Assembly (NCBI GenBank): GCA_964650645.1
Contig: CAZYUH010000001.1
Location: 639,202-703,201, forward strand
Length of the DNA stretch: 64,000 nucleotides
Direction of reading: 5' to 3'
Source: an uncultured Candidatus Saccharibacteria bacterium
GTDB taxonomy: Bacteria; Patescibacteriota; Minisyncoccia; Phycocordibacterales; SBAW01
In this document: positions 1 through 64,000 of the stretch, in pieces
Numbering within the stretch: position 1 is the first letter of the stretch
How the letters are laid out: each line of letters starts with the position of its first letter
The notes under the pieces: model-generated
What the model saw: only the letters and a program-made list of their open reading frames with translations
Databases searched by the model: none
What the model was told of the DNA's origin: nothing
Program-made: the position numbers and the translations under genes

Positions 1-190
1 CAACCGCCGCCGTGGTGCTTGCCGCGCCCTGCCCTTCAGTGAACGGCTGGGGCCATAGGGTCGCCAAAAGCGCGCCAAGAACAATGCCGCACACGAGGAG
101 TCCCGCATAGACGGGCGCGTGGGAGCGGGCCGCGCGCCTGCTGCTGGGGAATCCGAAATCGGGCTTGGATGCGGGGGCGTTTTCCTTCAT
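1..190 (-). CDS. Hypothetical membrane protein, N-terminal part only (gene runs off window start)
   Basis: ATG at 190-188 on minus strand gives MKENAPASKPDFGFPSS...LLVCGIVLGALLATLW with a hydrophobic helix; GC3-rich frame; not in ORF track because truncated. Confidence 0.3.
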   Translation of the reverse strand, partial: MKENAPASKPDFGFPSSRRAARSHAPVYAGLLVCGIVLGALLATLWPQPFTEGQGAASTTAAV

Positions 191-221
191 GGGCTCTTCA
201 GGGACGCTCGGCGTCCTGGCG

Positions 222-1079
222 CTATTTTACATTGCCCGTGCCGCCGCACAAGGCGCCGGCTTCTTCCAGCGCGGCATCGGCCTTCGAGCCCGACACCCCC
301 GCTTCTTCCAGCACGTTGGGAGAGCGCACGAGGTCGCTGCACAGCACCACCTTCCTTTCAAGCAAAAGGGCCTTCTCGCGGCGCCCGAGCGCCGTCAGCG
401 CGGTTACCGGGTAGAGGCCCGCGGCGTCGATGCGGTCGTGGAGCGTCGCGCCGCGCGGCTGTTCCCAGCTTAAGAGCTCGAGCCCGGTGCACGACGCGTA
501 GTGGCTTGCGTGGGACGTGAATTTCGTATTGGTGGCAAGCAAGCCGCGCACGACTGCCGCTTCTTCGCCGCCTTTGGGCTTTTTCGCGCCCCGCCCCGCC
601 CGTATGTCGTCCATGCGCGCCTTCACGTAGAGCGCGGTCTTGAGGTCGGTCTTGAAGCCCGGGCTGTTGTGGAACTTCGCCTCGACGTACATGAGCTCCC
701 CGCCCCTGCTCGCCACGACGTCCACCTCGTGCTCGACGCACGCGCCCGCGATGATGCGCCCCGTCGACGCCTCCCAACCCTCGGCGCGCAGGAGCGCGGC
801 CAGGTAGGTCTCGAAGGGAAAGCCTGAGGGCCCGAAGTCCCATACGGCGCGCTTGAGGCTGTAGCGCGCGGCCAGGCCGCGGCGCCGGTTTCGCAGGCGC
901 GCGAACGCGCGCCGGTAGAGCTCCTGCGTCGTCATGCCGTTGAACAGCTCCCCTTCGAGCTCGCGCGATATCTCGTAGGCGTCGGTGCGGTCGGCGCCAG
1001 CGCGCGCCAGCGAGCCCAGGAGCTTGTGCGCGTCGAACGCCTCGCGCGTGCCGTCGGCTTTGGTGATGAGAACCGCCAT
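222..1079 (-). CDS. ATP-cone domain plus Mrr-like restriction endonuclease domain protein
   Basis: N-terminus MAVLITKADGTREAFDAHKL...TQELYRRAFARL matches ATP-cone (NrdR-like); C-terminal half has Mrr_cat-like core (VVASRGGELMYVEAKFH); start taken at internal Met 17 of the 301-aa ORF. Confidence 0.6.
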   Translation of the reverse strand: MAVLITKADGTREAFDAHKLLGSLARAGADRTDAYEISRELEGELFNGMTTQELYRRAFARLRNRRRGLAARYSLKRAVWDFGPSGFPFETYLAALLRAEGWEASTGRIIAGACVEHEVDVVASRGGELMYVEAKFHNSPGFKTDLKTALYVKARMDDIRAGRGAKKPKGGEEAAVVRGLLATNTKFTSHASHYASCTGLELLSWEQPRGATLHDRIDAAGLYPVTALTALGRREKALLLERKVVLCSDLVRSPNVLEEAGVSGSKADAALEEAGALCGGTGNVK

Positions 1080-17751: not shown

Positions 17752-20595
17752 TTAGTGTGCGCGTGAGCGATACTTGCGGCGGACATGCCCTACCCCGGCG
17801 TAGCCCAGGTAGCCCAGACACCCGGCCAGCGTCAGCCCCGATACAATGAGCCCGAGGTAAAACCAGCGCTGGGGCCAGAATTCTATCACCATTTCAATGT
17901 CATAGCTCCCGCCGGGGTTTTGGGTACAGCCCGCCAGTTTTTGGACTTCGCACAGCTCTGTCGTGTCTACGTACCACCCGTTTAGGAAGCCATTGAGCTT
18001 GTAATGGTACTCGTCTCCTACCCTGTCGGGCTTGGCAAACGGCCACCAGCTATCCAATCGCCCTTGCACTTTGGCATTGTTGAGCTCTAAGTACCACTTG
18101 TCGTGATAACTCTCGCTCATGCCCAGGAAGAACGGCGTTGTTGCACCCCTTATGTACACCAGCTTCTTGGTCGGGCTTATAAGATCAAAGGTGGTGGATG
18201 CGGGTTGCACAAGCTGAGCATCCGGCTCGCTTACTAGATAATAAGAGCTGGATATATCCGGAATCTCGACAAGTTTGAAATTATCGTAACGGTTGATATT
18301 ATTAGTTTTTACGTCCGTCTCTTTTGCATATACATACAAACTGAGAGTTGTAGCCCCTGCAGGGACTTTTATGGTACGGGTTAAAGTATGCCAGGCAGTA
18401 TCGGTTAGCGGCAGATTCTCACTATCAGATGTCTTAACTGGGTCGTTAAAGCCAATGTAATAGGAAGCGGATTTTGCATTAGAACTTTGATAGTCGAAGC
18501 TCAATAAATATGTGCTAGTTGCATTAATAGGGAGTTCTATAGAGATGCAAGCAGTATGTCGAGTTGCCTCAAGTTGTAGAGATTGAACGCCGTCTGTCTT
18601 GTTATGGGCATCCAATTTCATTCCTAAAATAGGCTTTTGGTCATAATTATGACAATCCCCAACTGCTTGCTGCCAAAAACCTCTCTCAAAAGACCCATTG
18701 GTAATTAAATTTTTAAATGTGTAATTTTTATTTGTATAAGTAAATTGGTTATCGATACCATTTAATAAAGTAGTGCTCGAATATATGGGTTCATTATCAA
18801 TAGATAGTTTGTCGAAATTATTTAATGCGTAAAGTATATTTTTATTGGCAGAGTATATGGTTGTAGTAGCAGTAATACTCGAACTTGCGGTTGATATATT
18901 TTGAAAATTGACATTCTCAAATAACTGGTCAACATATGTTGCTGAAGAGGTGGCATTAGCTTTATTGAATAAGTAGAAATAAAAACCATTATGCAGTTGA
19001 TTGTTAACAAAATTATACTTTTCATCTAGATTATTTTTAGATTCAAAAGAATACAAATAATCAAATGTAAATATATTTCGTATCGATCTTATGTTTTTAA
19101 AAATAAACAAATTTGGATCTAGATACATATTGTTGACACGTGTCCAGTTACTATCTTTTGTGAGAGCGTTTATCTGATTCTCTGATACAGGAGTTGATAT
19201 ACAGGTTATTACGTAACCGGCACTATTTAGCAACGATAACGCATCTTGAATATTATCTTCTGATATATGTTTAACTTCTATATCTTTTGAAAGAAAATGC
19301 TGATTTAAAGTAAAAAATTTTATTTGATCAAGTTCATTACATATGCCGCCATCAACCCAAATAACCATGCTGTGGTTAGGTATATTGTTTAGTGATTGAA
19401 CTAGATCAGTATCAGGTAATTTGGGTATAAGTAATTTATTATAAATTTCAGTAAGCATGAATCCACACCAACCAAAAATTATTATAGTAAGAAAAGATAA
19501 TGATATAAATTTCAACGTTCTTGACATTCTCGAAATTCCCAAACCTAGAATTATTACTGCAAGTATGGGGATATATAATTGCCACTTAAGAGGTGATCTA
19601 AAGGCCCATCCACCCGGAAGATTATTTAGAATTGATAATATTATGTTTGAACCAAAGTTATTTAATGCCAACCAATATAAAAGTAGTAATATTCCTAGAA
19701 ATAATCTTGAAAAGAAACCTTCTATATTTTTATTATTAGAGTAAAAAAATGCAATTATAAGTAAAATCTGAAAAGAAAAACCAAAAATAACAAAAATAAT
19801 CTTATACCCTGAATTATAGTAATCATAATCAGTGAGAACATCTCTAGACCAAGTAAATGTATTAACCAAACTACCCGAGTTTGCAAACCCAATAAATGAA
19901 TCAGTATTTGAAGAGTTTGCATTTATCGTAGATACTATGGAAGCTTTATTTAAAGCTTGTGTTGAATAAATGCTCAATATAAGAAAGGCACTCAACATTC
20001 CACAAATTACTAATGCTTTTATGGCACTTATTATTAGTTCTTTTCTAAAAGGATTGCTGTAGAGCCGTGTTACAAAGAAAATTGTCGCTATAAAAGTATT
20101 TACGATGAAAGTAAACGGATGAATTAATGAAACGATTAATCCAAAATAAGCTAAAATAAAGTAACGAGGGCTTTTTGTCTGAATATATTTTTTTAAAAGT
20201 ATTATTACAAAAGGCAACATTGAGGCGCCTAAAATTAATCCTATTTTCGAAATATTTGCTAGAAATATCGGGTTAATAACATAAAATAAACTCAACAAAA
20301 AACGTGTATGAATATCTATTTTTTTAAAAAAAGATAATGCAAAATATGCAGAACATGCCGCAATCACAAGCGCTAGAAATAAGTATAAATAAGATACACC
20401 AAGGTTTCCAAGAATTGGATAAAATATAAGCAAAAAAAGCCTTATTGGTAGTCGAAAAACGCCATCCAAATTAATAGCTCCATTTTGGGAAGACCAAAGA
20501 TAGAATGTTTTTAGAAAATATATCCATGCTTCAAATGGAAACCCAAAATCACCGTTAGCTAGAAATCCTAAATTAAATATATTACCGAAGTACAT
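17752..20595 (-). CDS. Large polytopic membrane protein (YfhO/GT-C-like N-terminal 13 TM region + ~450-aa extracytoplasmic domain + C-terminal TM anchor), mosaic composition
   Basis: 947 aa; N-terminal 2/3 encoded by AT-rich DNA, C-terminal third by GC-rich DNA; C-terminal domain looks like a carbohydrate-binding/jelly-roll domain. Confidence 0.5.
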   Translation of the reverse strand: MYFGNIFNLGFLANGDFGFPFEAWIYFLKTFYLWSSQNGAINLDGVFRLPIRLFLLIFYPILGNLGVSYLYLFLALVIAACSAYFALSFFKKIDIHTRFLLSLFYVINPIFLANISKIGLILGASMLPFVIILLKKYIQTKSPRYFILAYFGLIVSLIHPFTFIVNTFIATIFFVTRLYSNPFRKELIISAIKALVICGMLSAFLILSIYSTQALNKASIVSTINANSSNTDSFIGFANSGSLVNTFTWSRDVLTDYDYYNSGYKIIFVIFGFSFQILLIIAFFYSNNKNIEGFFSRLFLGILLLLYWLALNNFGSNIILSILNNLPGGWAFRSPLKWQLYIPILAVIILGLGISRMSRTLKFISLSFLTIIIFGWCGFMLTEIYNKLLIPKLPDTDLVQSLNNIPNHSMVIWVDGGICNELDQIKFFTLNQHFLSKDIEVKHISEDNIQDALSLLNSAGYVITCISTPVSENQINALTKDSNWTRVNNMYLDPNLFIFKNIRSIRNIFTFDYLYSFESKNNLDEKYNFVNNQLHNGFYFYLFNKANATSSATYVDQLFENVNFQNISTASSSITATTTIYSANKNILYALNNFDKLSIDNEPIYSSTTLLNGIDNQFTYTNKNYTFKNLITNGSFERGFWQQAVGDCHNYDQKPILGMKLDAHNKTDGVQSLQLEATRHTACISIELPINATSTYLLSFDYQSSNAKSASYYIGFNDPVKTSDSENLPLTDTAWHTLTRTIKVPAGATTLSLYVYAKETDVKTNNINRYDNFKLVEIPDISSSYYLVSEPDAQLVQPASTTFDLISPTKKLVYIRGATTPFFLGMSESYHDKWYLELNNAKVQGRLDSWWPFAKPDRVGDEYHYKLNGFLNGWYVDTTELCEVQKLAGCTQNPGGSYDIEMVIEFWPQRWFYLGLIVSGLTLAGCLGYLGYAGVGHVRRKYRSRAH

Positions 20596-20597
20596 AC

Positions 20598-21665
20598 CTA
20601 TTTATTGTTAAAAGATATGAGGTTCTGAATATAAATTTTAGATATATCTAGGATCGCCTCATCCTTTTGACCCAGAGATTTCAAAAGCTGTGTACATTTA
20701 TTATCATAAGAAATAGGGATATATTTGACACCACTTAAGGCAGCTAGGAGCATCCCATGATACTGAGGCAAGATACAAACAAGACTTTCCTTATTGTTTC
20801 GTAAAAATAAATAAAAACTAATTGGATTGCCGCTAAAATTTTTTATTATAATTCGATCAGTATTTAATAAGTTTGCGTGTAATTTTTGGAACTCAAGCAC
20901 ATCTGAATACATACTATTTTTAAAACTTGGATGCAGAGCTAGAAGTAAAAAATTATCAGTGCTTTTATATTGAATAAACTTTTCAATTACTGCAACGTAA
21001 TTAGAAATTTCAGTTGTACTATTACCTCGATAACTAACAATATAATTAATTTGTTTAGGATCTATTGGAAACAGTGATTTAGCCTCGACCTTATAAGCTT
21101 CGAGGTTCAAATTATTTAACAAAAAGGCAATATCTTGAGTTAGAACAACTTTCCGTTTAAAACCTAAACCAGAAAATGAATAGTATGTTTCTTCATCTCT
21201 TGCATAAATTTTATTTGACGCAAGTCCAGAAATAAATGCACCGAAGTGGCCAATCATTCCTGTCGACTTATAATATCCAACGCCAATAAGATACACTTCT
21301 TTTCTAAGCACGAATCGCGCTGCAAGTAATAAAAAGGAAAGTATTAAAACTTTTAAATTGAAATCCAGCCCCCAGAGTCCACCTCCTCCGATTATAGTTC
21401 TTTTGCTTACAAATAAAGCCTTTAGGACTCCCATTATCGAAGGCTTAATCAAACGAGCTTCTTCAAACGAATGGTGAGAATCGGAATAAATTTCACTATT
21501 TAAATAAATAAATTGTGTATTTTTTATATTTCTTGATTTGAAATAATTTAGCAAAACTTCTAGAATTAGCTCATCTCCCATATTTCCACCACCATAAAAA
21601 CCAAACAAAAAAGAATTGGAAAAATCAAGCTTATCTAATTCTAATTTTAATTTTCTTGTTTCCAT
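20598..21665 (-). CDS. Polysaccharide pyruvyl transferase family protein
   Basis: FYGGGNMGDELILEVLL ... IIGGGGLW motifs typical of PF04230 (CsaB/WcaK-like). Confidence 0.7.
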   Translation of the reverse strand: METRKLKLELDKLDFSNSFLFGFYGGGNMGDELILEVLLNYFKSRNIKNTQFIYLNSEIYSDSHHSFEEARLIKPSIMGVLKALFVSKRTIIGGGGLWGLDFNLKVLILSFLLLAARFVLRKEVYLIGVGYYKSTGMIGHFGAFISGLASNKIYARDEETYYSFSGLGFKRKVVLTQDIAFLLNNLNLEAYKVEAKSLFPIDPKQINYIVSYRGNSTTEISNYVAVIEKFIQYKSTDNFLLLALHPSFKNSMYSDVLEFQKLHANLLNTDRIIIKNFSGNPISFYLFLRNNKESLVCILPQYHGMLLAALSGVKYIPISYDNKCTQLLKSLGQKDEAILDISKIYIQNLISFNNK

Positions 21666-21666
21666 A

Positions 21667-22518
21667 TTAACAACTTACTCTTGCCCACAGTTTCGTTTTT
21701 TTTATAAAATTAAAAAAATAATTTTTTTGTTCCGCATTAATAAAACTGTCTAGTAAAAAAGAAAGCAAAGTATATGCATACATTCCAATCTTGTTGGGCG
21801 GCGAGTATTTTCTTAAATACTCCATCCGTGACTGAAACATTAATTTTGTTTTGATTTTAAAATACTGATCCGTACTATTTTTATGTTTTCTGTATTTATA
21901 TAAATATTCAGGCAAATTGGCTCCTTGTTTACCAGCCATTATAAATCTTAAAAACATATCTACATCTTCAATGTAATCTTTGTCATCACGATACGCTCCG
22001 ATTTCAAGAACATCACTTTTTCTAAACATTATTGTTGGATGAAGAAAAGGGTAATGAAAAAAATATAACTTAGATATAACATGTGGTTCAATTGGAAACT
22101 CAATGGAAGCAAGCTCTATATTGCTTTCATTAATAATAATCGCAAAAGTGCCAACAAGGGATAAGGCAGGATTCTTGGATAAATATAGATATTGTTTTTC
22201 GAGTCTGTCAGGTGTCGAGATATCGTCCCCATCCATACGCGCAATTATTTCACCCCTAGCTATACTTAGCCCTTTATTTAAATTTTTTGCGATTCCTATA
22301 CGTTCAGTATTTTTTATATATATAATTCGCGGGTCAAATAAATAACGTTTTATAATTTTTTCAGACTCATCAGTGGATGCATCATCAATAATAATGAATT
22401 CAAAATCAGAGTACGATTGATTCAAAATACTTTCAATTGATTCACGTAAAAAAGCCTCGGCATTTCTAAAAGGCATTACTACAGATATTTTAGGTTGTTT
22501 AGTCATATGATTTTGCAA
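21667..22518 (-). CDS. Glycosyltransferase family 2
   Basis: ISVVMPFRN...IIIDDASTDES...MDGDDIS (DxD) GT-A signature; true start may be the Met at 22506. Confidence 0.75.
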   Translation of the reverse strand: MQNHMTKQPKISVVMPFRNAEAFLRESIESILNQSYSDFEFIIIDDASTDESEKIIKRYLFDPRIIYIKNTERIGIAKNLNKGLSIARGEIIARMDGDDISTPDRLEKQYLYLSKNPALSLVGTFAIIINESNIELASIEFPIEPHVISKLYFFHYPFLHPTIMFRKSDVLEIGAYRDDKDYIEDVDMFLRFIMAGKQGANLPEYLYKYRKHKNSTDQYFKIKTKLMFQSRMEYLRKYSPPNKIGMYAYTLLSFLLDSFINAEQKNYFFNFIKKTKLWARVSC

Positions 22519-57777: not shown

Positions 57778-58905
57778 CTACAGGGAAGGTTCGGCGATGG
57801 GCGCCTCCCGGGGAGGGGTCGCGCGCTCGGTGGAGATGCCGCCGGCTATGTCGCCCGGCGAAAAATTCGCCACGCTCGCGCTCTGCGATGCGCCGGGAAG
57901 GAGCGTTGCGTTCGCCGCGATGAACGTCAGCGCAATGAGCGCGACCGCGAGCCCCGGCAGGAGAAGATCGGTCGGCTGTACCTGGATGCGCACGAAGAAC
58001 GTAAGCGCTATGACGAGCGCGAGCAGCGCCGCGACGCCAGCCAGCACCCACGGGGCGCCGGATCCGAGCGCGTCGGCTATGCGCTCCGCGCGCTCGGCGG
58101 TCGAATCTGCGGGGGCGGAATGCGGTTGGAGCCGGGGTTCAGGAGCCGCATCAGGCTGAGCCTGCACGGGCGCGGGCGCGGGCGGCTCTTCCGCTGCCGC
58201 AAGCGTCTGCGTTTCCGCTCCCGCCACCGCTGAAGGGGCAGGCGCCGGAGCCTCGCTTGCCGGCGTTTCAGGCGCCGCGCCGCTTGCGTCAGCCGCTTGC
58301 GCCTCGCTTGGCTCGGGCGATGCCGCGGCAGCCCGAGCCGGCGAGCCGAAGTACTGCACGACGAACGTGGCCGGGCCGCCCTTATACGTGCCTTCCGCGA
58401 TTCCGACGCCGATTTCGCGGTACTGCGGCTTTACAATGTTGGCGCGGTGCGCGGGCGACGCCATCCATGCGTCCACCACGTCCTTCGAGTCTTCGAAGCG
58501 CACGGCGAGATTCTCGCCCGCGTACGCGTACTCGTAGCCCGCGCGCTCCAGCCACTCCCACGGCTCCTCGCCGCCGGGTCCCACGTGGCTGAAATAACCC
58601 TTCGCGGCCATATCCTCGGCTTTCGCCTGGGCCGCCGCATCCAAAGCGTCGTTCTCGACAAGCGCGCCGCCGCCCCCTTCGCTAGCGCGCGCTTCCTCTG
58701 TGTAAAGAATGACGTCGCTCCTAAGCACCGCCGCTAGGAATACGTCGGGACCCGGCGCGAGCGTATGGCCCAGGATGACGCCCTCGCTCGCGAGCGCGAG
58801 CGCCAGGAAGGCCATGAGCCACCCGCGGCGCAGGATATGCGGCCGGTGCGTGTTCCCGCGCCACGGAAAAAGATGGTTTTTAACGGACCTCCACAGCCTC
58901 ATCAC
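57778..58905 (-). CDS. CAP (SCP/PR-1-like) domain protein with N- and C-terminal TM segments and Ala/Pro-rich linker
   Basis: AAAQAKAEDMAAKGYFSHV...AGENLAVRFEDSKDVVDAWMASPAHRANI matches CAP/YkwD-like domain. Confidence 0.55.
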   Translation of the reverse strand: MMRLWRSVKNHLFPWRGNTHRPHILRRGWLMAFLALALASEGVILGHTLAPGPDVFLAAVLRSDVILYTEEARASEGGGGALVENDALDAAAQAKAEDMAAKGYFSHVGPGGEEPWEWLERAGYEYAYAGENLAVRFEDSKDVVDAWMASPAHRANIVKPQYREIGVGIAEGTYKGGPATFVVQYFGSPARAAAASPEPSEAQAADASGAAPETPASEAPAPAPSAVAGAETQTLAAAEEPPAPAPVQAQPDAAPEPRLQPHSAPADSTAERAERIADALGSGAPWVLAGVAALLALVIALTFFVRIQVQPTDLLLPGLAVALIALTFIAANATLLPGASQSASVANFSPGDIAGGISTERATPPREAPIAEPSL

Positions 58906-59411
58906 CTCCTATCATATACGACAAAAGCCCGGGAAGGGCTTTTTGCGAACGCAGAGGAGTGAATTGCGCATCAAAAAGGCGCGTATCGATATTTCCAGTG
59001 CCGCCGCTTCGCGCCACAAGAGAAAGAACTTGACATTTTTTATAAAATTGCCGTATATTCCATACTTGGTATGCAGTTTTTCGTTCCTGCCTCATCCTAT
59101 ACAGACTGCCAACCCGCGAGGTAAAGCTAATGGAAGAACCCACTCTGCCCAGGGGGGCCGGAAGAGTATCCCCTTCGAGCGAGCTTGCGTGGCCGAAAAA
59201 GCGATCTCTCGACGACAGGCTGTTCTCCAGAACAGAGCACCTGCGCCAGAAGCCCCCTTCAGGGCGCGATCCGCAGGAAGTGCGGCATTCCTCAGGAGTA
59301 GACGCAACACGCGCGGATTCCTGACAAGGAGCCGTGCGCGAAGACGGCGGCGCCAGGTATGGTGCCGCCTTTTCTTATGCGTTCTTCGCTCGCAGCGCGC
59401 GGAAAGCTTCT

Positions 59412-59942
59412 TTAGGAAAACCAGGAAAAGAAGCCGGCAACAAGACTGCGCAGGGAATTCAATATAAGCGCCGCTATTCCCGTCCCCTCCTGGCCTGGCG
59501 CAGGCTCGCTTGGGGCTGGCGGCTCCGCGAACTCCGCCTGCGCGCTCGCGCTCGCTTTGTCATTATCCCCGTCACGGACCGCGTCGGCCTCGGCGGGAAT
59601 GACCTTTTTTACGACAGGCGCGGCGCCCTGCTTCGTTTCAATAACCGTTTCCTTCGGCGTGGACTGCACCGACACGCTCACGTCGCCTGAAGCCGAATCG
59701 TAAGACTCCTCGTGCACGGCGCCGTTCGCGTTGGTCTTTATGTAGACGCTTGAAGTCGAGGTGCCGTGCGCGTTGGTTGTCGAGACCGAAGCGGACGCGC
59801 CGCCCGTCCTTACGACGCCGCCCGGACCGGCCGTATTGCCGCCCGTGTTGGAGCTGGCGCTGGTATGGCTGTATATTTCGGCGCGTGCCATGGCGGGAAT
59901 AAAGGCTACAAGCGCGAGACTGATAAGGAGTGCGTACGGCAT
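59412..59942 (-). CDS. Secreted Ser/Thr/Ala-rich protein, hypothetical
   Basis: Signal peptide MPYALLISLALVAFIPAMARA; no family. Confidence 0.4.
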   Translation of the reverse strand: MPYALLISLALVAFIPAMARAEIYSHTSASSNTGGNTAGPGGVVRTGGASASVSTTNAHGTSTSSVYIKTNANGAVHEESYDSASGDVSVSVQSTPKETVIETKQGAAPVVKKVIPAEADAVRDGDNDKASASAQAEFAEPPAPSEPAPGQEGTGIAALILNSLRSLVAGFFSWFS

Positions 59943-59975: not shown

Positions 59976-62822
59976 TTAGAGCGTGGGTGCCACGGGCTCG
60001 GTGCAGGCAAGGTCGCGGATCTTGCGTATGGTCATGCCGGCAACCGTGCCCGTGGGGCGCGTCAGGCCCAGCGGCGCCAGGATGTCGGCGGCATACCTGC
60101 TTTGGAACGCGCTCACGGCTGCGAAGGTCTGCGGCCCGAAGAAGTTCGTGCCCGGAAGCGACGCGCCCTGGGTGTTGAGGAACCGCTGGAGCTTGGCGAC
60201 CTCGGGGCTCACCATGCCGCGGTAGAGGTTCTGCGTGACCGCGAGCGAGCAGTCGGTCGCGGCGCCCAGCACCGCGCCGCCCGTTCCTATATTGACCGTA
60301 CCCATCCCGAAGGCGGGCAGCATGGGCTCGCCGCTGCCCTGCCTGAACTTTGCGCCCGTAACAGTCGCGAAGTTGCGGTACGTTCCCGCCGTGCTTGAGG
60401 CTGCGAACTCGACCGAGTACGTGAGCGTTATCTGGTCGCCGGAAGCGAGGTCCTGGAGGTCCCACGAGCGGTGGTACATGATACCGCCCTCGGGAGTGAA
60501 GAGCGTATCGGCGAGCGTAGCGCCGTACAAGGGCCCTGCGTCCTTTGCGTTGGTCACGACCACTTTGTAGTCGACCACCTTGGGCGTCGTCGTGCTGATG
60601 CGCACCACCGTCTTCTCGACCGTGACGCGCGGCTCGTCGTTGGAGCTTGCGGGCACCGGCGGCGTGTTGTCGGGCTTGGCGACCGTCTTGGGGCGGGAAT
60701 CGCCGCCGCCTCCGCCGCCTCCCCCGCCGCCGCGACTGCCGCCGGACGAGGGCGGATTGACGACGTCGAGCAGGGCGACCGTGAACGACGCCTGGGCGCT
60801 GGAGGTATCGCCGTCGCTGAGCGCCGACACCGAGATGGGCACGGGCACGGACGTGCCCTGCGGGATGGAGCCCACGCGCGCCGTGTAGGTGAAGGTGCGC
60901 GACTCGCCGCGGCCCACGGTCGGAATATGCCACTCGCGGCCCTCGTCCGTGCGCACGCCGTCGGTATCGGTAAAGCTCAGCTGGTTATGGTCGAAGCCGG
61001 CCTTGAGCGTGATGTCGTCGGCGTCGCGGTCGCCGTTGTTAGTGATGGTGAAATCGTACGCGACGTCCGTGCCTGGGGTGACCGTGGCCGCCGTCGTCCT
61101 CGCCTCGAGCTCGAGGTCGGACCGGCCGAACGTGATGTCGCCGTTCCATTCGCCCAGCACGTTGAAGAGCGCGAATATCCAGTTGCGGCCGACGATGTTG
61201 GTGTTGATGAGATTGATGACGTTCGCGACGGCGTACGCGTCGCCTGTTATGACGTGCGCGACGCCATCCTCGGTGTAGGCATTGTTGTGTCCCGTATTCG
61301 CGGTGACGTCCACGTTGTTCTCTACCGCAGCCGCATTGGTCGAGGATGCGACGAAGGTCGATGAATTGAAGCAGTTGTTGACCGGCTCATCCTCGGGGTG
61401 GTCCGAACGGGGCTCCTTGCAGTTGGCACCTGCCGCGCCCTCGGGGTTCTGCGCGCCGCTCTGGTCGCCTACCGGCACATTATCCTCATCCACCTCCTCG
61501 TTAGTAACGAGCACCAGGGTCGAGGTCGAGGTGATGCCGTCGCGGGTGGCGGCATCGTACACGCGCTTAACATGCAGCGCGCCGGGCAAGCTCTTGACGT
61601 CGCCCCTCCACTCGCCCGCAACGCGGAACATGAAGAGCGCCGACGTGCCGCCCACGTAGTTGTTGTTGGCGTTGGTGTAGGTGGTGGCCTTGCTGTAGGC
61701 GTCGCCGGTCGAGACGATGCCGCTTCCCTCGCCCGTAGTCGAAGCGGTGTTAGAGCCGGTATCCGCGCCCGCGGTCGTGGTGCCGGTCAGCGCGAGCTGA
61801 TTCTCGTTGTAGACGCTGTAGGAGCTTGAATTCATCTCCGGCGCCGAGCCCTCGTGCGCGAAGAGCCGCCTGAAGAAGTCGTCGCCCGGCAGGGTGATGT
61901 CGCCGTTGAGGTCGCCGAAGCTGTTGAACGCCGCCAGGAGATAGCTTGAGTTGACTATATTGGTGTTGACCAGGTTGACCACGTTGGCGGCCGCGTACGC
62001 GTCGCCCGACGTTACGGACGCGTCGCCGGTATCGGTCGTGGAGGCCGTGTTGCCGCCCGCGTCGGCGCGGACGATGACGCTGTTGGTGACCGTCGCGGTG
62101 TTGCCGCTGAGCACGTTGATGTTGCTGGAGGTCGGGCAGGTCAGGAGCGTGCACTGCGCCTCGCCCGTCTCCTCGTTGACCGTCGGGGAATTGCCCGCCT
62201 GGCCCTCGAAGAAGTAGCCGAGGTCGTAATCGCGCAGGTCGAGCCCGGCCGGGAACAGCTGGTTGAGGAACAGCAGGAGGCCCTGCGAGTTGAATATGTT
62301 GGTGTTGATGAGGTTGAGCACGTTAGCGAACGCGAAGGCGCCGCCGGTCACGATAGTAGCCGTGCCCTGCCCGCCATCGGCGACGTTGGCGCCGGTAGAG
62401 GCGGTCGATGTGGAGAAATTGTTCACGAGCGCCTCGTTGGTCGAGGTTGCGGTGAATCCGGATGAGTTGAGGCAGCCGCCGTTCTCTGCCACCTGCTCGG
62501 CCGAGCAGGCGCTGTCGACATTGCTCGCGTCGTTCTTGTTGACGGAGTTCTCCACGGACGTGGAGGCGCTGGCGGCGCCCGTATCTATCGTGCCGCCCAC
62601 GTCGTGCTGGCCGCCCGTGCCGTCGCTCGAGGTGGTCGCGACGACCTGGCCCGCGTTGGCGCCAGGCGCGCCGTCGGTCGAGGTGGCGTTCTCGTTATCG
62701 GCGCGCACGGGCGCGGCGAGCGCAAGCGTCGCGGCGACAAGCAGGAGCGCCGCGAAAGAGCTGACAAGTACGGATCGCCTGAATGGTAGGTACGTCATGT
62801 AGGAATTAAAGTAAGCTGTCAA
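59976..62822 (-). CDS. Large secreted surface protein: four ~60-aa 'TGDAY...VNL(I/V)NTNI' repeats, DUF11-like domain, poly-Gly tract, C-terminal peptidoglycan-binding (PG_binding_1) domain
   Basis: Signal peptide; repeats at four positions; GGSRGGGGGGGGGGD run; C-terminus VAKLQRFLNTQGASLPGTNFFGPQTFAAVSAFQ matches PGBD. Confidence 0.6.
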   Translation of the reverse strand: MTAYFNSYMTYLPFRRSVLVSSFAALLLVAATLALAAPVRADNENATSTDGAPGANAGQVVATTSSDGTGGQHDVGGTIDTGAASASTSVENSVNKNDASNVDSACSAEQVAENGGCLNSSGFTATSTNEALVNNFSTSTASTGANVADGGQGTATIVTGGAFAFANVLNLINTNIFNSQGLLLFLNQLFPAGLDLRDYDLGYFFEGQAGNSPTVNEETGEAQCTLLTCPTSSNINVLSGNTATVTNSVIVRADAGGNTASTTDTGDASVTSGDAYAAANVVNLVNTNIVNSSYLLAAFNSFGDLNGDITLPGDDFFRRLFAHEGSAPEMNSSSYSVYNENQLALTGTTTAGADTGSNTASTTGEGSGIVSTGDAYSKATTYTNANNNYVGGTSALFMFRVAGEWRGDVKSLPGALHVKRVYDAATRDGITSTSTLVLVTNEEVDEDNVPVGDQSGAQNPEGAAGANCKEPRSDHPEDEPVNNCFNSSTFVASSTNAAAVENNVDVTANTGHNNAYTEDGVAHVITGDAYAVANVINLINTNIVGRNWIFALFNVLGEWNGDITFGRSDLELEARTTAATVTPGTDVAYDFTITNNGDRDADDITLKAGFDHNQLSFTDTDGVRTDEGREWHIPTVGRGESRTFTYTARVGSIPQGTSVPVPISVSALSDGDTSSAQASFTVALLDVVNPPSSGGSRGGGGGGGGGGDSRPKTVAKPDNTPPVPASSNDEPRVTVEKTVVRISTTTPKVVDYKVVVTNAKDAGPLYGATLADTLFTPEGGIMYHRSWDLQDLASGDQITLTYSVEFAASSTAGTYRNFATVTGAKFRQGSGEPMLPAFGMGTVNIGTGGAVLGAATDCSLAVTQNLYRGMVSPEVAKLQRFLNTQGASLPGTNFFGPQTFAAVSAFQSRYAADILAPLGLTRPTGTVAGMTIRKIRDLACTEPVAPTL

Positions 62823-62913
62823 CCCTCTCTGGGACCTTCTTTGCGGCTCAGTTGTACCGCAAAGCAGGCCTCATGAGAAGGGGGGAGCCTTGCTCCCCTT
62901 CTTCTCGAAGGAA

Positions 62914-63600
62914 CTAGATGCGAACGCGGAGGAAGTTCGTGTTGAGCACGTTGACCGCGCCGGAGCGGGAGGTCGAGTCGCCGGTGCGTACCGTGCCGCC
63001 CAAGCCGCCTGCGCCGCCATGGCCGCCTGCGCCGCCGGAGCCGGAGGTCGAGTCGCCCTGGTTGCCGGTCTTGTTGGCCGTGCCGGAGTTGCCGCCGTTG
63101 TCGCCCGAGCCGCCAGTGGAGCCGGCCGCCGCGTTGAGGCCGGTCGACGCGAGAGCGTTCGTGGTCTCATCGATGTCGCCGGTATTCTTCTGGCTCGCGG
63201 TTGCCGACGAGCTATTGAGGCCGCCGCGGATGCTTACGCGGGTGTCGTTGCTGTTGGCCTGGTTGACCGCGCCAGCCTCGGACATCGCAGCGCCCGTCTC
63301 TACCAAGCCGCCTTCGCCGCCGTTGCCGCCGTTGCCGCCAGAGCCGGCATTGCCGCTCTTGGCGTTGCCGTTGTCGCCGCCCTGGGAAGCATTGCCGGAG
63401 TTGCCGCCGTTGCTGCCGTTGCCGCCGGTCGAACCGTCCGCGAAGTTGAGGCCGGTGTTCGATACGGCGTTAGTGTTGCTCGTAACCGTGCCCGAGTTCG
63501 TGTTGCTGATCTTGATCGAGCTGCTATTGACCGCTGCGAAGGCAGGGGTCGCGGTTGCGAGCATGCCGAGCGCAGTAAGTGCTGCAAGAGTCTTTTTCAT
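62914..63600 (-). CDS. Secreted Gly/Asn/Ser-rich protein with two copies of the same 'NTN' repeat motif as the adjacent large protein
   Basis: Signal peptide MKKTLAALTALGMLATATPAFA; AVNQANSNDTRV and AVNVLNTNFLRV motifs after G/N/S-rich stretches. Confidence 0.5.
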   Translation of the reverse strand: MKKTLAALTALGMLATATPAFAAVNSSSIKISNTNSGTVTSNTNAVSNTGLNFADGSTGGNGSNGGNSGNASQGGDNGNAKSGNAGSGGNGGNGGEGGLVETGAAMSEAGAVNQANSNDTRVSIRGGLNSSSATASQKNTGDIDETTNALASTGLNAAAGSTGGSGDNGGNSGTANKTGNQGDSTSGSGGAGGHGGAGGLGGTVRTGDSTSRSGAVNVLNTNFLRVRI

Positions 63601-64000
63601 ATAATTCTTTACAGATTAATTAATGCTTGTAAACCCGGCTTCCTGCTCCCGTACGGCAAGCATGATGCGCGGGGCATCGACCTTGCGCGCGGACTGCGCG
63701 ATCCTGGTGATCGTGAAGCCCACGGCACAACCTGCACTATGTTGACGGTTGTGCCCTGAACTCCACATGAACTTTATGAACTCTTTAGACAAGAACTTCG
63801 GGAACAAAAAACGCGAAGCCCGCATGCGCGAGTTTCGCTTGATTACACGCTCGTTGGAGAGAGTGACGGCATATATTCCTGCCGCTGGTTTCCCTGCGTG
63901 GCAAATTGTATGAATCCGCCACGCACATGAATTATCCTATCCCCTTCATTAAGGGTCAATGAAGAAAAGCCTGTATTGCGCACTGGAGCATATCTCGCGT

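Follow-up and report, generated by a model that had tools for sequence, protein, structure and literature searches.

Patescibacteria account for a large share of bacterial diversity, and those in cultivation live attached to other cells; to our knowledge, almost nothing is known of their surface proteins beyond type IV pili. In the window (the whole stretch of 64,000 nucleotides analysed here), two adjacent genes encode proteins with a common repeat, which raises the question of what these proteins are and what they might build. The open reading frames of the two (the large and small proteins, 948 and 228 aa) lie where the original prediction had placed them (Table 1). Because the secreted proteins of this locus share the repeat, one of them is apparently tied to the wall, and a conserved RNA hairpin lies between the genes, the products probably form a structure on the surface of an ultra-small bacterium (Patescibacteria/CPR).

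Table 1. Features of the locus, in positions of the window; residue numbers are those of the protein concerned.
Feature	Residues	Position	Strand	Basis or remark
CAP/YkwD-like membrane protein		57778..58905	-	Pfam CAP, E 3e-17
Third (mini) gene, 176 aa		59412..59942	-	signal peptide, one unit (SASSNTGGNTAGPGGVVRTGGASASVSTTN), S/T/A/P-rich stretch, C-terminal helix
Large gene, 948 aa		59976..62822	-	TTG 62822 as listed start; ATG 62798 alternative
PG_binding_1	872-940	60003..60209	-	Pfam match 872-910 and helical model
Ig-like (DUF11-type) domain 2	733-846	60285..60626	-	second Pfam DUF11 stretch; beta-sandwich strands in model
Run of 10 Gly codons	698-707	60702..60731	-	inside disordered linker 694-726
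DUF11/Ig-like domain 1	569-681	60780..61118	-	Pfam PF01345, E 4.3e-11
N-terminal repeat domain	66-565	61128..62627	-	all-beta, confident models
Repeat unit	485-564	61131-61370	-	unit profile
Repeat unit	330-410	61593-61835	-	unit profile
Repeat unit	231-310	61893-62132	-	unit profile
Repeat unit	118-195	62238-62471	-	unit profile
Half unit	66-103	62514-62627	-
Two-hairpin RNA motif		62823..62898	-	between small and large genes; fold z, covariation
RNA hairpin 2		62823-62881	-	invariant outer stem, CCUUCUC (62875-62881) with GAGAGGG (62823-62829); covarying inner stem
RNA hairpin 1		62882-62898	-	GGGGAGC-AAG-GCUCCCC
Small gene, 228 aa		62914..63600	-	Sec signal peptide (MKKTLAALTALGMLATATPAFA, then A; by eye), then two repeat units
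Gly-rich insert 2 (small protein)	~159-201	62998..63126	-	end GGAGGHGGAGGLGG; TRF, family alignment, insert length
Gly-rich insert 1 (small protein)	~55-97	63310..63438	-	GGX-type triplets between TGxNxA and (G)GLVxTG

A beta-strand repeat in three secreted proteins

The large protein consists, in order, of a signal peptide, a predicted beta-solenoid repeat domain, a DUF11 domain, a glycine linker, a second Ig-like domain and PG_binding_1. Four repeats of about 60 aa had been proposed for it; the count of four full units (E 1e-20 to 1e-29 with the unit profile) stands, but the unit is about 80 aa long rather than 60 because the profile spans the four stretches listed in Table 1, and an N-terminal half unit had been overlooked. 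Copies of the TGDAY/NTNI core are seen at residues 160-177 (there TGGAF...NTNIF), 272-289 and 526-543, with a degenerate copy at 372-389.

The unit HMM matches the small protein (E 6.6e-8), and the large and small proteins are paralogous through the shared repeat, as the original prediction held (hhalign probability 97%, E 9.2e-11); the alignment places the small protein on residues 66-177, at the N-terminal tip of the large one. The 176-aa (mini) protein is probably a third paralog with a single unit, a reading moderately supported by sequence comparison of its family with the small family (hhalign 92.5%, E 4.8e-7, signal peptides included) and with the half unit of the large protein (probability 40%, E 2.9e-4). 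It aligns to residues 64-96 of the large protein and ends in an aromatic amphipathic helix (...LVAGFFSWFS; family alignment A7). All three products begin with a hydrophobic, signal-peptide-like leader (read by eye), and theirs are the only unit-bearing open reading frames that the unit HMM finds in the window.

This repeat is undescribed, and its family is large and unannotated: clustering at 50% identity leaves at least 3,783 clusters, and the species-level genomes with members number at least 172. The architecture of four units is shared by 88 of 121 family members and by thousands of proteins in databases, and chance is thereby excluded. None of the 58 homologues of the small gene is named; the small family consists of proteins of ~225-240 aa with the ending ...NxLNTxxxRVRx (family alignment A5). 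Where relatives of the large protein carry a public annotation, it is 'uncharacterized repeat protein (TIGR01451 family)', a label that applies to the Ig-like spacers only and leaves the N-terminal 500 residues and the small and mini proteins uncovered.

The models make it probable that the all-beta unit stacks into a beta-solenoid-like domain. The structures closest to the repeat-domain model are all beta-solenoids (the Toastrack-type beta-helix 4qrk, RTX, the CsgA curli fibril, RmAFP and RsaA), and the best-ranked Foldseek match, the FapC amyloid, is not significant. The right-handed beta-helix of the Toastrack families ('putative adhesin', e.g. PDB 4QRK) is a comparison system for this domain; DUF4097, DUF2807 and DUF2154 gave no match at E<=1 in the cassette proteins and none in 62 family members. 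Tandem nonapeptides GGxGxDxUx of the RTX beta-roll (HemolysinCabind) were not found. The resemblance to curli CsgA/CsgB and Pseudomonas FapC/FapB does not go beyond fold class: the cassette repeat is four times longer than the curlin repeat, with modelled strands of 20 residues, and Pfam Curlin_rpt has no match at E<=1 in the cassette proteins or in 62 + 27 family members. Secretion genes of the outer-membrane CsgG/FapF type were not seen, nor are they expected in a monoderm.

Wall anchor, spacers and glycine-rich sequences

PG_binding_1 is predicted, from sequence and model, to be the non-covalent peptidoglycan anchor of the large protein. Its presence at the C-terminus, claimed in the original prediction, is marginal by Pfam score (PF01471, 23.5 bits versus a cut-off of 23.0, residues 872-910) and is backed by a modelled three-helix bundle (873-884, 897-914 and 929-940, pLDDT 85-93) and by homologues, the best of which scores E 4.2e-9; the C-terminus is kept in close relatives. 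Members of the large family are predicted to be cell-anchored throughout, by PG_binding_1 in the clade of the window, and 91 of 232 have a hydrophobic, transmembrane-like C-terminal tail.

The C-terminal half of the large protein is a true member of the DUF11/TIGR01451 surface proteins (PF01345, E 4e-11; 43.6 bits versus a cut-off of 24.6), with two matching stretches of which that at residues 569-681 is the better; gathering-score matches are also present in 30 of 62 family members. The full-length model matches tandem Ig/FnIII proteins in Foldseek (RbmA, transglutaminase, integrin). These two Ig-like domains had not figured in the original prediction.

Between the Ig-like domains lies a stretch (pLDDT <50 across residues 694-726) for which a run of 12 Gly had been reported; ten are consecutive (GGC GGC GGG GGA GGC GGC GGA GGC GGC GGC), and 12 are found only within 15 residues. 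The numbers of Gly at this position in different species are 5, 7, 10, 11, 11, 13, 16, 16 and 17. The tract, in frame and built of mixed codons, is a linker that is longer in some species than in others, and not the phase-variation site that it had been suggested to be.

The G/N/S-rich stretches of the small protein had been described as low complexity, a description at odds with their family alignment, in which Gly columns are invariant and the insert length is 38-42 aa in 76 members (44% Gly). Insert 1 has a period of 9 nt (3 aa) in 13.8 copies at 63307-63427 (TRF). Polyglycine-II (PGII) sandwiches are known from the PE_PGRS proteins of M. tuberculosis, the snow-flea antifreeze protein (sfAFP) and the phage gp38 adhesin tips. 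For PE_PGRS proteins, GGA/GGN triplets have been modelled as building blocks of such sandwiches, whose sequence signature is runs of 3-5 GGX triplets with conserved Gly (PMC10216338). The inserts contain runs of this kind (GGN GGN GGE GG; GGA GGH GGA GGL GG) with conserved Gly and length, but judging from sequence each is just ~40 residues and set within a beta unit, unlike the sandwich proteins. Judged by this pattern, the conserved GGX-rich inserts probably fold into an ordered glycine-rich surface, possibly with polyglycine-II helices. One member of the small family has a weak match to the Obg glycine-rich domain (E 0.009).

Gene order and intercistronic RNA

The three genes constitute a probable surface cassette that is widespread in Patescibacteria, chiefly of the Paceibacteria/Parcubacteria type. 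In 67 of 71 related loci (94%) the large gene is preceded, on its own strand, by a gene of the small family, so that the pair does co-occur in related genomes as had been anticipated; the order small-large-mini is maintained in loci L001 and L006. The 176-aa secreted protein, likewise placed in the module by the original prediction, keeps its place, its gene being next to that of the large protein in at least 33 of 78 loci. The CAP protein does not: its gene neighbours the cassette in only 20 of 81 loci and lies ~500 nt away beyond a GC-rich hairpin and has an AT-rich upstream region and an AGGAGG ribosome-binding site of its own. It is a separate transcription unit and a loose neighbour rather than a core part.

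Between the small and large genes is an RNA motif that is conserved, covarying, specific to the cassette and absent from Rfam. Its fold z is -3.8, and its two-hairpin architecture is alike in eight relatives. Seven of 16 consensus pairs have compensatory changes in a MAFFT alignment; in the comparison with slid controls 14 of 16 do, and 95.4% of cells are paired (controls, at most 63%). The covariance model matches 47 times on the same strand across 1.03 Mb and only once within the window, and at least 15 of the 19 matches of a blind pattern scan are flanked by unit-bearing genes. In a search of the window with Rfam 15 the only matches were tRNAs; under permissive thresholds the best match to the motif had E 0.15 (20 bits versus a gathering score of 79).

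The motif probably sets the ratio of the small protein to the products of the downstream genes. It resembles hairpins that mask ribosome-binding sites and intercistronic stems of operons, since a purine-rich, SD-like GAGAGGG is paired in a long stem with a pyrimidine, anti-SD-like CCUUCUC directly upstream of a gene and the motif separates a presumably abundant first cistron from later ones. It differs from known hairpins in the invariance of its outer-stem sequence across distant genera and in the second conserved hairpin that abuts it. GAGAGGG precedes the ATG of the next gene by 2-8 nt in about one third of instances, but in the clade of the window the first ATG is 20-27 nt past it, too distant for simple masking, which therefore may not apply there. 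The RNA may mask the ribosome-binding site (GAGAGGG:CCUUCUC), serve as a stem for processing or stabilisation, or do both.

Possible roles of the cassette

Our tentative preference, held with somewhat less than even confidence, is that the cassette encodes a stalk, anchored to the wall, with a beta-solenoid tip that the secreted paralogs bind or on which they are nucleated. The large protein would be the stalk, holding the wall through PG_binding_1, with the Ig-like domains and the flexible poly-Gly linker as spacers; because the anchor is C-terminal, the 4.5-unit N-terminal domain would be furthest from it. The two-unit and one-unit secreted proteins would dock onto the tip, or polymerise from it, via the shared unit. 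The stretch DGTGG..GGTIxTGDAxA of the tip is among the best conserved of the large family. The anchored paralog would then serve as the base or nucleator of a surface fibre or coat, and the small paralog would be its abundant subunit; by analogy with the life of cultivated Patescibacteria, the fibre or coat may serve attachment.

The same logic of anchored and secreted paralogs may be seen in the long and short chaplins, CsgB/CsgA and TapA/TasA. Streptomyces chaplins comprise long forms with a wall anchor (ChpA-C) and short secreted forms (ChpD-H) that are thought to assemble on them. Like the cassette proteins they are paralogs with one small beta-rich domain, present in several copies in a long form with a C-terminal wall anchor, and both occur in monoderm organisms. 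The likeness is one of architecture, however, and does not extend to sequence (the Pfam chaplin model does not match the cassette proteins at E<=1), and amyloid is only putative in the cassette. Its unit is ~80 aa versus ~40 in chaplins and it has Ig-like spacers, and the anchor is a non-covalent PG_binding_1 or a transmembrane tail instead of a sortase signal; only 5 of 232 relatives have LPXTG-like strings.

It is possible, though we think it doubtful, that the three are independent binding proteins, which would present one ligand-binding beta-helix module in wall-bound, free and membrane-associated formats to a glycan, a host wall polymer or a metal, co-regulated and without mutual assembly. 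This would leave unexplained why it is the N-terminal tip of the large protein in particular that the small and mini proteins resemble, why the gene pair lies on one strand in 94% of loci, and why a dedicated RNA lies between the cistrons; moreover, the unit shows neither a conserved pocket nor an acidic motif, many copies having G, N, A or E in place of the Asp of TGDA.

That the small protein forms a two-dimensional lattice with the large protein as wall-anchoring adaptor is decidedly unlikely. The likeness to RsaA is a generic beta-roll similarity, a protein of 228 aa with ~40% Gly-rich inserts is unusually small for a lattice former, and the locus has no known S-layer anchoring domain (no SLH match in Pfam). 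Still less probable is a system of secreted beta-helix enzymes, for instance a polysaccharide lyase or hydrolase with envelope polymers of the host or of the cell itself as substrate: enzyme matches are the weakest of those listed, no Pfam catalytic family matches the cassette proteins at E<=1, and the unit has no invariant acidic or basic residues, its only invariant columns being Gly and its other well-conserved positions Asn, Ala and Thr. A contingency locus in which slipped-strand mispairing at (GGC/GGA)n switches or tunes the large protein is scarcely credible, for although the Gly number varies from 5 to 17 between species and TRF reports a period-3 tract (60701-60744), slippage cannot switch the gene off because the 30-nt GGC/GGG/GGA mix is a multiple of 3 nt, its longest perfect run, (GGC)3, is far under tracts known for high-rate slippage, it lies in a disordered inter-domain linker, and runs of at least 5 Gly occur in just 15 of 232 family members.

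The stalk with its secreted paralogs has a more far-reaching form, which we regard as unlikely: an as yet unseen, Patescibacteria-specific filament or sheath in which two-unit subunits polymerise on the anchored beta-solenoid template through stacking of their solenoids, every subunit carries a small PGII sandwich for contact with the host cell, and the RNA fixes the subunit-to-anchor ratio.

The family can now be described by a clear domain model, a conserved order of three genes, anchoring to wall or membrane, and a structured RNA that is specific to the cassette and a candidate for a new Rfam entry. Should the GGX inserts fold as polyglycine-II helices, bacterial surface proteins would gain a rare fold; and the filament, if it exists, would represent a bacterial surface fibre of a new class and a candidate organelle for host attachment in the largely uncultivated Paceibacteria.

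A repeat unit shared by the large, small and, probably, mini proteins

The large protein (948 aa) and the small protein (228 aa), whose open reading frames are located where the original prediction had placed them, share an all-beta unit with a TGDAY/NTNI core. A unit HMM identifies four copies of approximately 80 aa in the large protein (E 1e-20 to 1e-29), and profile comparison adds an N-terminal half unit; the large-family consensus is NxAxVxNxVxVxAxTGxNxA-(x7)-IxTGDAxAxANVxNxVNTNIxxSxYxxxxxNxFGDWxGDIxLP, with four units in 88 of 121 relatives and five in 20. The small protein possesses two units, each split between TGxNxA and TGDA by a Gly-rich insert of ~40 aa. Profile-profile comparison of the small and large families (97% probability, E 9.2e-11) bears out the paralogy that had been proposed, and places small residues 84-224 on large residues 66-177, the N-terminal tip of the large protein. 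The product of a third gene, the 176-aa mini protein, probably has one unit (SASSNTGGNTAGPGGVVRTGGASASVSTTN) and is related by hhalign to the small family (92.5%, E 5e-7, signal peptides included in the alignment) and, with weaker support, to the large family, where the match is located on the tip half unit. The 64-kb window contains no further unit-bearing ORFs.

The repeat is as novel as had been predicted. Neither Pfam nor NCBIfam has a match over the N-terminal 565 residues of the large protein or over the small protein, individual scans of 62 large-family and 27 small-family members found no known family in the repeat regions, and literature searches of CPR papers turned up no description of the family. 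Neither the whole-protein profile nor those for the unit and the small family matched any PDB sequence; hits to cyclodextrin glucanotransferase (E 0.018), picornavirus VP4 and the Gly-Ser linkers of nanobody fusions were judged compositional or due to chance. A fold search of the PDB with the full-length model returned only tandem Ig/FnIII proteins, which correspond to the DUF11 part and are uninformative about the repeat. With the N-terminal domain modelled alone, the structural neighbours were 4qrk (score 7.0), a Toastrack-type right-handed beta-helix (10.1101/2020.09.24.301986), RTX block V (6.2), the CsgA curli fibril (6.0), SufB and SufD (5.9 and 5.5), the Rhagium antifreeze protein (5.3) and RsaA (5.2). 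We conclude that the repeat domain probably belongs to the beta-solenoid fold class, outside any described family.

The large protein also has two Ig-like DUF11 domains (Pfam E 4e-11, and visible in the structure model), which the original prediction lacked, and a C-terminal PG_binding_1 domain that scores marginally (23.5 bits, cut-off 23.0) and is backed by the structure model and by homologues; the predicted wall anchoring stands. Among 232 large-family members, 91 have a hydrophobic transmembrane-like tail at the C-terminus and the others have none; the window's clade has the PG-binding domain instead. Because the cell anchor is C-terminal, the N-terminal repeat domain is at the far end of the protein. 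In some large-family proteins (related loci L007 and L008), the PG-binding domain is followed by a tail rich in Pro and Ala, whose ending, ...GWFSSLKSLLGGF, is similar to the aromatic, amphipathic end of mini-family proteins (...LVAGFFSWFS, encoded at window 59412-59480); judging by sequence, this common ending may be a membrane- or wall-association motif. Cysteine pairs (C106/C117, C224/C229, C468/C484) are situated just ahead of units 1, 2 and 4 of the large protein, C224 and C229 being invariant among close relatives, and are probably disulfide-closed loops capping each unit.

The inserts of the small protein are 38-42 aa long in 76 distinct members and 44% Gly, with invariant Gly columns and a triplet (GGX) register, which in sequence terms is the signature of an ordered element. 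Polyglycine-II sandwiches are built from GGA/GGN triplets (PMC10216338), and the GGX register makes candidate polyglycine-II elements of the inserts.

Gene linkage and genomic setting

The three genes form a cassette, in which the small and large genes are tightly linked: in 67 of the 71 related loci with enough upstream sequence, the large gene is preceded on its own strand by a small-family ORF, confirming the expected co-occurrence. Large and mini-family genes are immediate neighbours in at least 33 of 78 loci, with the mini gene downstream in 23 and upstream in 10; this count is a lower bound, obtained with a fixed HMM built on 14 mini genes next to large ones, since jackhmmer searches starting from the 176-aa protein had strayed into the large family. 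Some genomes contain two full cassettes (L009/L012, L011/L016).

The association is looser for CAP-domain proteins, which are neighbours in 20 of 81 loci, and for S8 subtilases, in 14 of the 81. Between the cassette and the window's CAP gene lie a GC-rich hairpin and some 450 nt, and the CAP gene is preceded by an AT-rich region of its own and an AGGAGG ribosome-binding site; it is therefore treated as a separate unit. Of the neighbours that the original prediction had joined into one surface module, the 176-aa protein belongs to the cassette and the CAP protein does not. The hairpin (GGCGGCACCATACCTGGCGCCGCC, minus strand), ~40 nt past the stop of the mini gene and without a following T-run, may be the end of the cassette transcript, in an organism with terminators lacking U-tails. 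A sigma-70-like site at 63604-63633 was rejected as a normal promoter of the small gene, as it ends 3 nt before the ATG. In these 14 loci the subtilisin-like S8 peptidase gene directly follows the cassette, and its product could be a maturation protease for the cassette proteins; the window has no such gene next to the cassette.

The window (60-68% G+C) also encodes UvrB, tRNA-guanine transglycosylase (TGT) and an FKBP isomerase near the cassette. The closest locus, L006, is 63% identical and syntenic, its small, large and mini genes being followed by a gene for an additional SpaA_4 protein and then by those for CAP, FKBP and TGT. In a Kaiserbacteria contig (L002), the small gene is set among other large secreted proteins, which combine SpaA-like prealbumin-fold domains and runs of poly-Gly with repeats of a Cys-rich module, 'CSDGIDNDGDGxID', and a C-terminal PG-binding domain like that of the large family, which suggests a larger surface-protein island exchanging modules. 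Elsewhere in the window, three genes of ~30-34% G+C (genome, 62%) encode proteins of 947 aa (a polytopic membrane protein), 355 aa and 283 aa. The last of these resembles, by eye, a family-2 glycosyltransferase, and the adjoining ORFs of normal G+C also resemble glycosyltransferases by eye; the region has the appearance of a surface-glycan island gained by horizontal transfer.

An exhaustive search of cluster representatives with the unit profile found 3,783 at E<=1e-3, of which 1,523 reached E<=1e-30, and most have 4-6 units in 700-1,200 aa; the same profile retrieved just 7 short fragments from a word-indexed database of 5.8 billion proteins. A pattern-limited genome scan based on a 13-sequence alignment located relatives in 172 species-level genomes. 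All named relatives are from Patescibacteria/CPR genomes (Kaiser-, Adler-, Taylor-, Nomura-, Zambryski- and Sungbacteria, 'Paceibacterota' and 'Parcubacteria group'), and their public names, where any exist, are 'hypothetical protein' or 'TIGR01451 repeat protein'.

Locations of the cassette genes, repeat units, RNA motifs and neighbouring features (L numbers denote related loci from other genomes)
Feature	Location	Strand	Detail
Small gene	window 62914-63600	-	228 aa
Large gene	window 59976-62822	-	948 aa
Mini gene	window 59412-59942	-	176 aa
CAP gene	window 57778-58905	-	
Half unit	large protein 66-103		profile comparison
Unit 1	large protein 118-195		unit HMM
Unit 2	large protein 231-310		unit HMM
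Unit 3	large protein 330-410		unit HMM
Unit 4	large protein 485-564		unit HMM
Cys-pair segment	window 62468-62507		residues 106-117
Cys-pair segment	window 62136-62153		residues 224-229
Cys-pair segment	window 61371-61421		residues 468-484
RNA motif	window 62823-62898	-	two hairpins
RNA motif	L001 7880-7979		
RNA motif	L002 8793-8913 and 13179-13287		
RNA motif	L005 5919-6014		
RNA motif	L006 5900-5997		
GC-rich hairpin	window 59346-59369	-	
S8 peptidase genes	L001 10970-12319; L060 8901-10802; 12 further loci		
Secreted-protein genes	L002 2952-7183, 10179-16687		
Low-G+C genes	window 17752-22518	-	three genes

A structured RNA motif specific to the cassette

The fold of the 91-nt spacer that separates the small and large genes is much more stable than those of its shuffles (z -3.8), and its two-hairpin design recurs in eight relatives picked by position only. 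A G+C-rich hairpin 1 of variable sequence is followed directly by CCUUCUCAUGAG (abutting it in 28 of 32 parsed instances), a variable inner hairpin and CUCAGAGAGGG; the outer stem CCUUCUC:GAGAGGG is invariant and the inner stem covaries. RNAalifold on a MAFFT alignment of 28 instances gave 16 pairs, 7 with compensatory changes; in the model-fitted alignment, 95.4% of cells pair (slid controls, <=63%) and 14 of 16 pairs have compensatory changes. The covariance model has exactly one match in the window (62809-62915, minus strand) and 47 gene-strand matches in 1.03 Mb of related loci, where the sole opposite-strand match is weak (E 0.004) and lies at the motif site of L001. A blind exact-pattern scan of metagenome contigs yielded 19 matches, at least 15 of them flanked by a same-strand unit-bearing gene, and about 40 loci have the motif besides those tabulated. 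Two-copy loci (L002, L029, L031, L033, L053) have one motif ahead of each gene that follows the small gene. The motif, to which no family in Rfam 15 corresponds, is specific to the cassette gene family.

GAGAGGG stands 2-8 nt ahead of the next gene's ATG in about one third of the instances, where, from its sequence, it would be a ribosome-binding site masked by the anti-SD-like CCUUCUC. Since the first ATG in the window's clade is 20-27 nt beyond GAGAGGG, the motif may instead serve there in processing, in stabilisation or in protein binding. A mini-ORF at a conserved AUG inside the motif was discounted, its length (8 codons in the window, 6 in L006, 22 in L005) and sequence, read by eye, not being conserved between loci.

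Possible assembly and function

In the reading that we tentatively place first, at somewhat short of an even chance as a whole, the secreted paralogs would attach to the tip of the anchored large protein or polymerise from it, the RNA motif would hold the cistrons downstream at a low level compared with the small gene, and the resulting structure would serve attachment. Such assembly of secreted paralogs on an anchored one would be akin to that of long and short chaplins, CsgB/CsgA and TapA/TasA. Next, and rather unlikely, the proteins would be independent adhesins; an S-layer-type coat ranks below this, and an enzyme system lower still. Last comes a contingency locus, in keeping with the phase variation originally predicted at the Gly tract of the large protein. 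This prediction failed: the run (10 Gly, 60702-60731) is in frame and imperfect, with mixed codons, so that on/off switching is impossible. The run belongs to a linker that joins the two Ig-like domains and is modelled with pLDDT below 50; with 5-17 Gly at the corresponding position in relatives, it is a flexible tether of evolvable length.

The cassette is a real, well-conserved, unannotated surface-protein cassette of Patescibacteria, in which the RNA motif and the GGX inserts are two additional leads.
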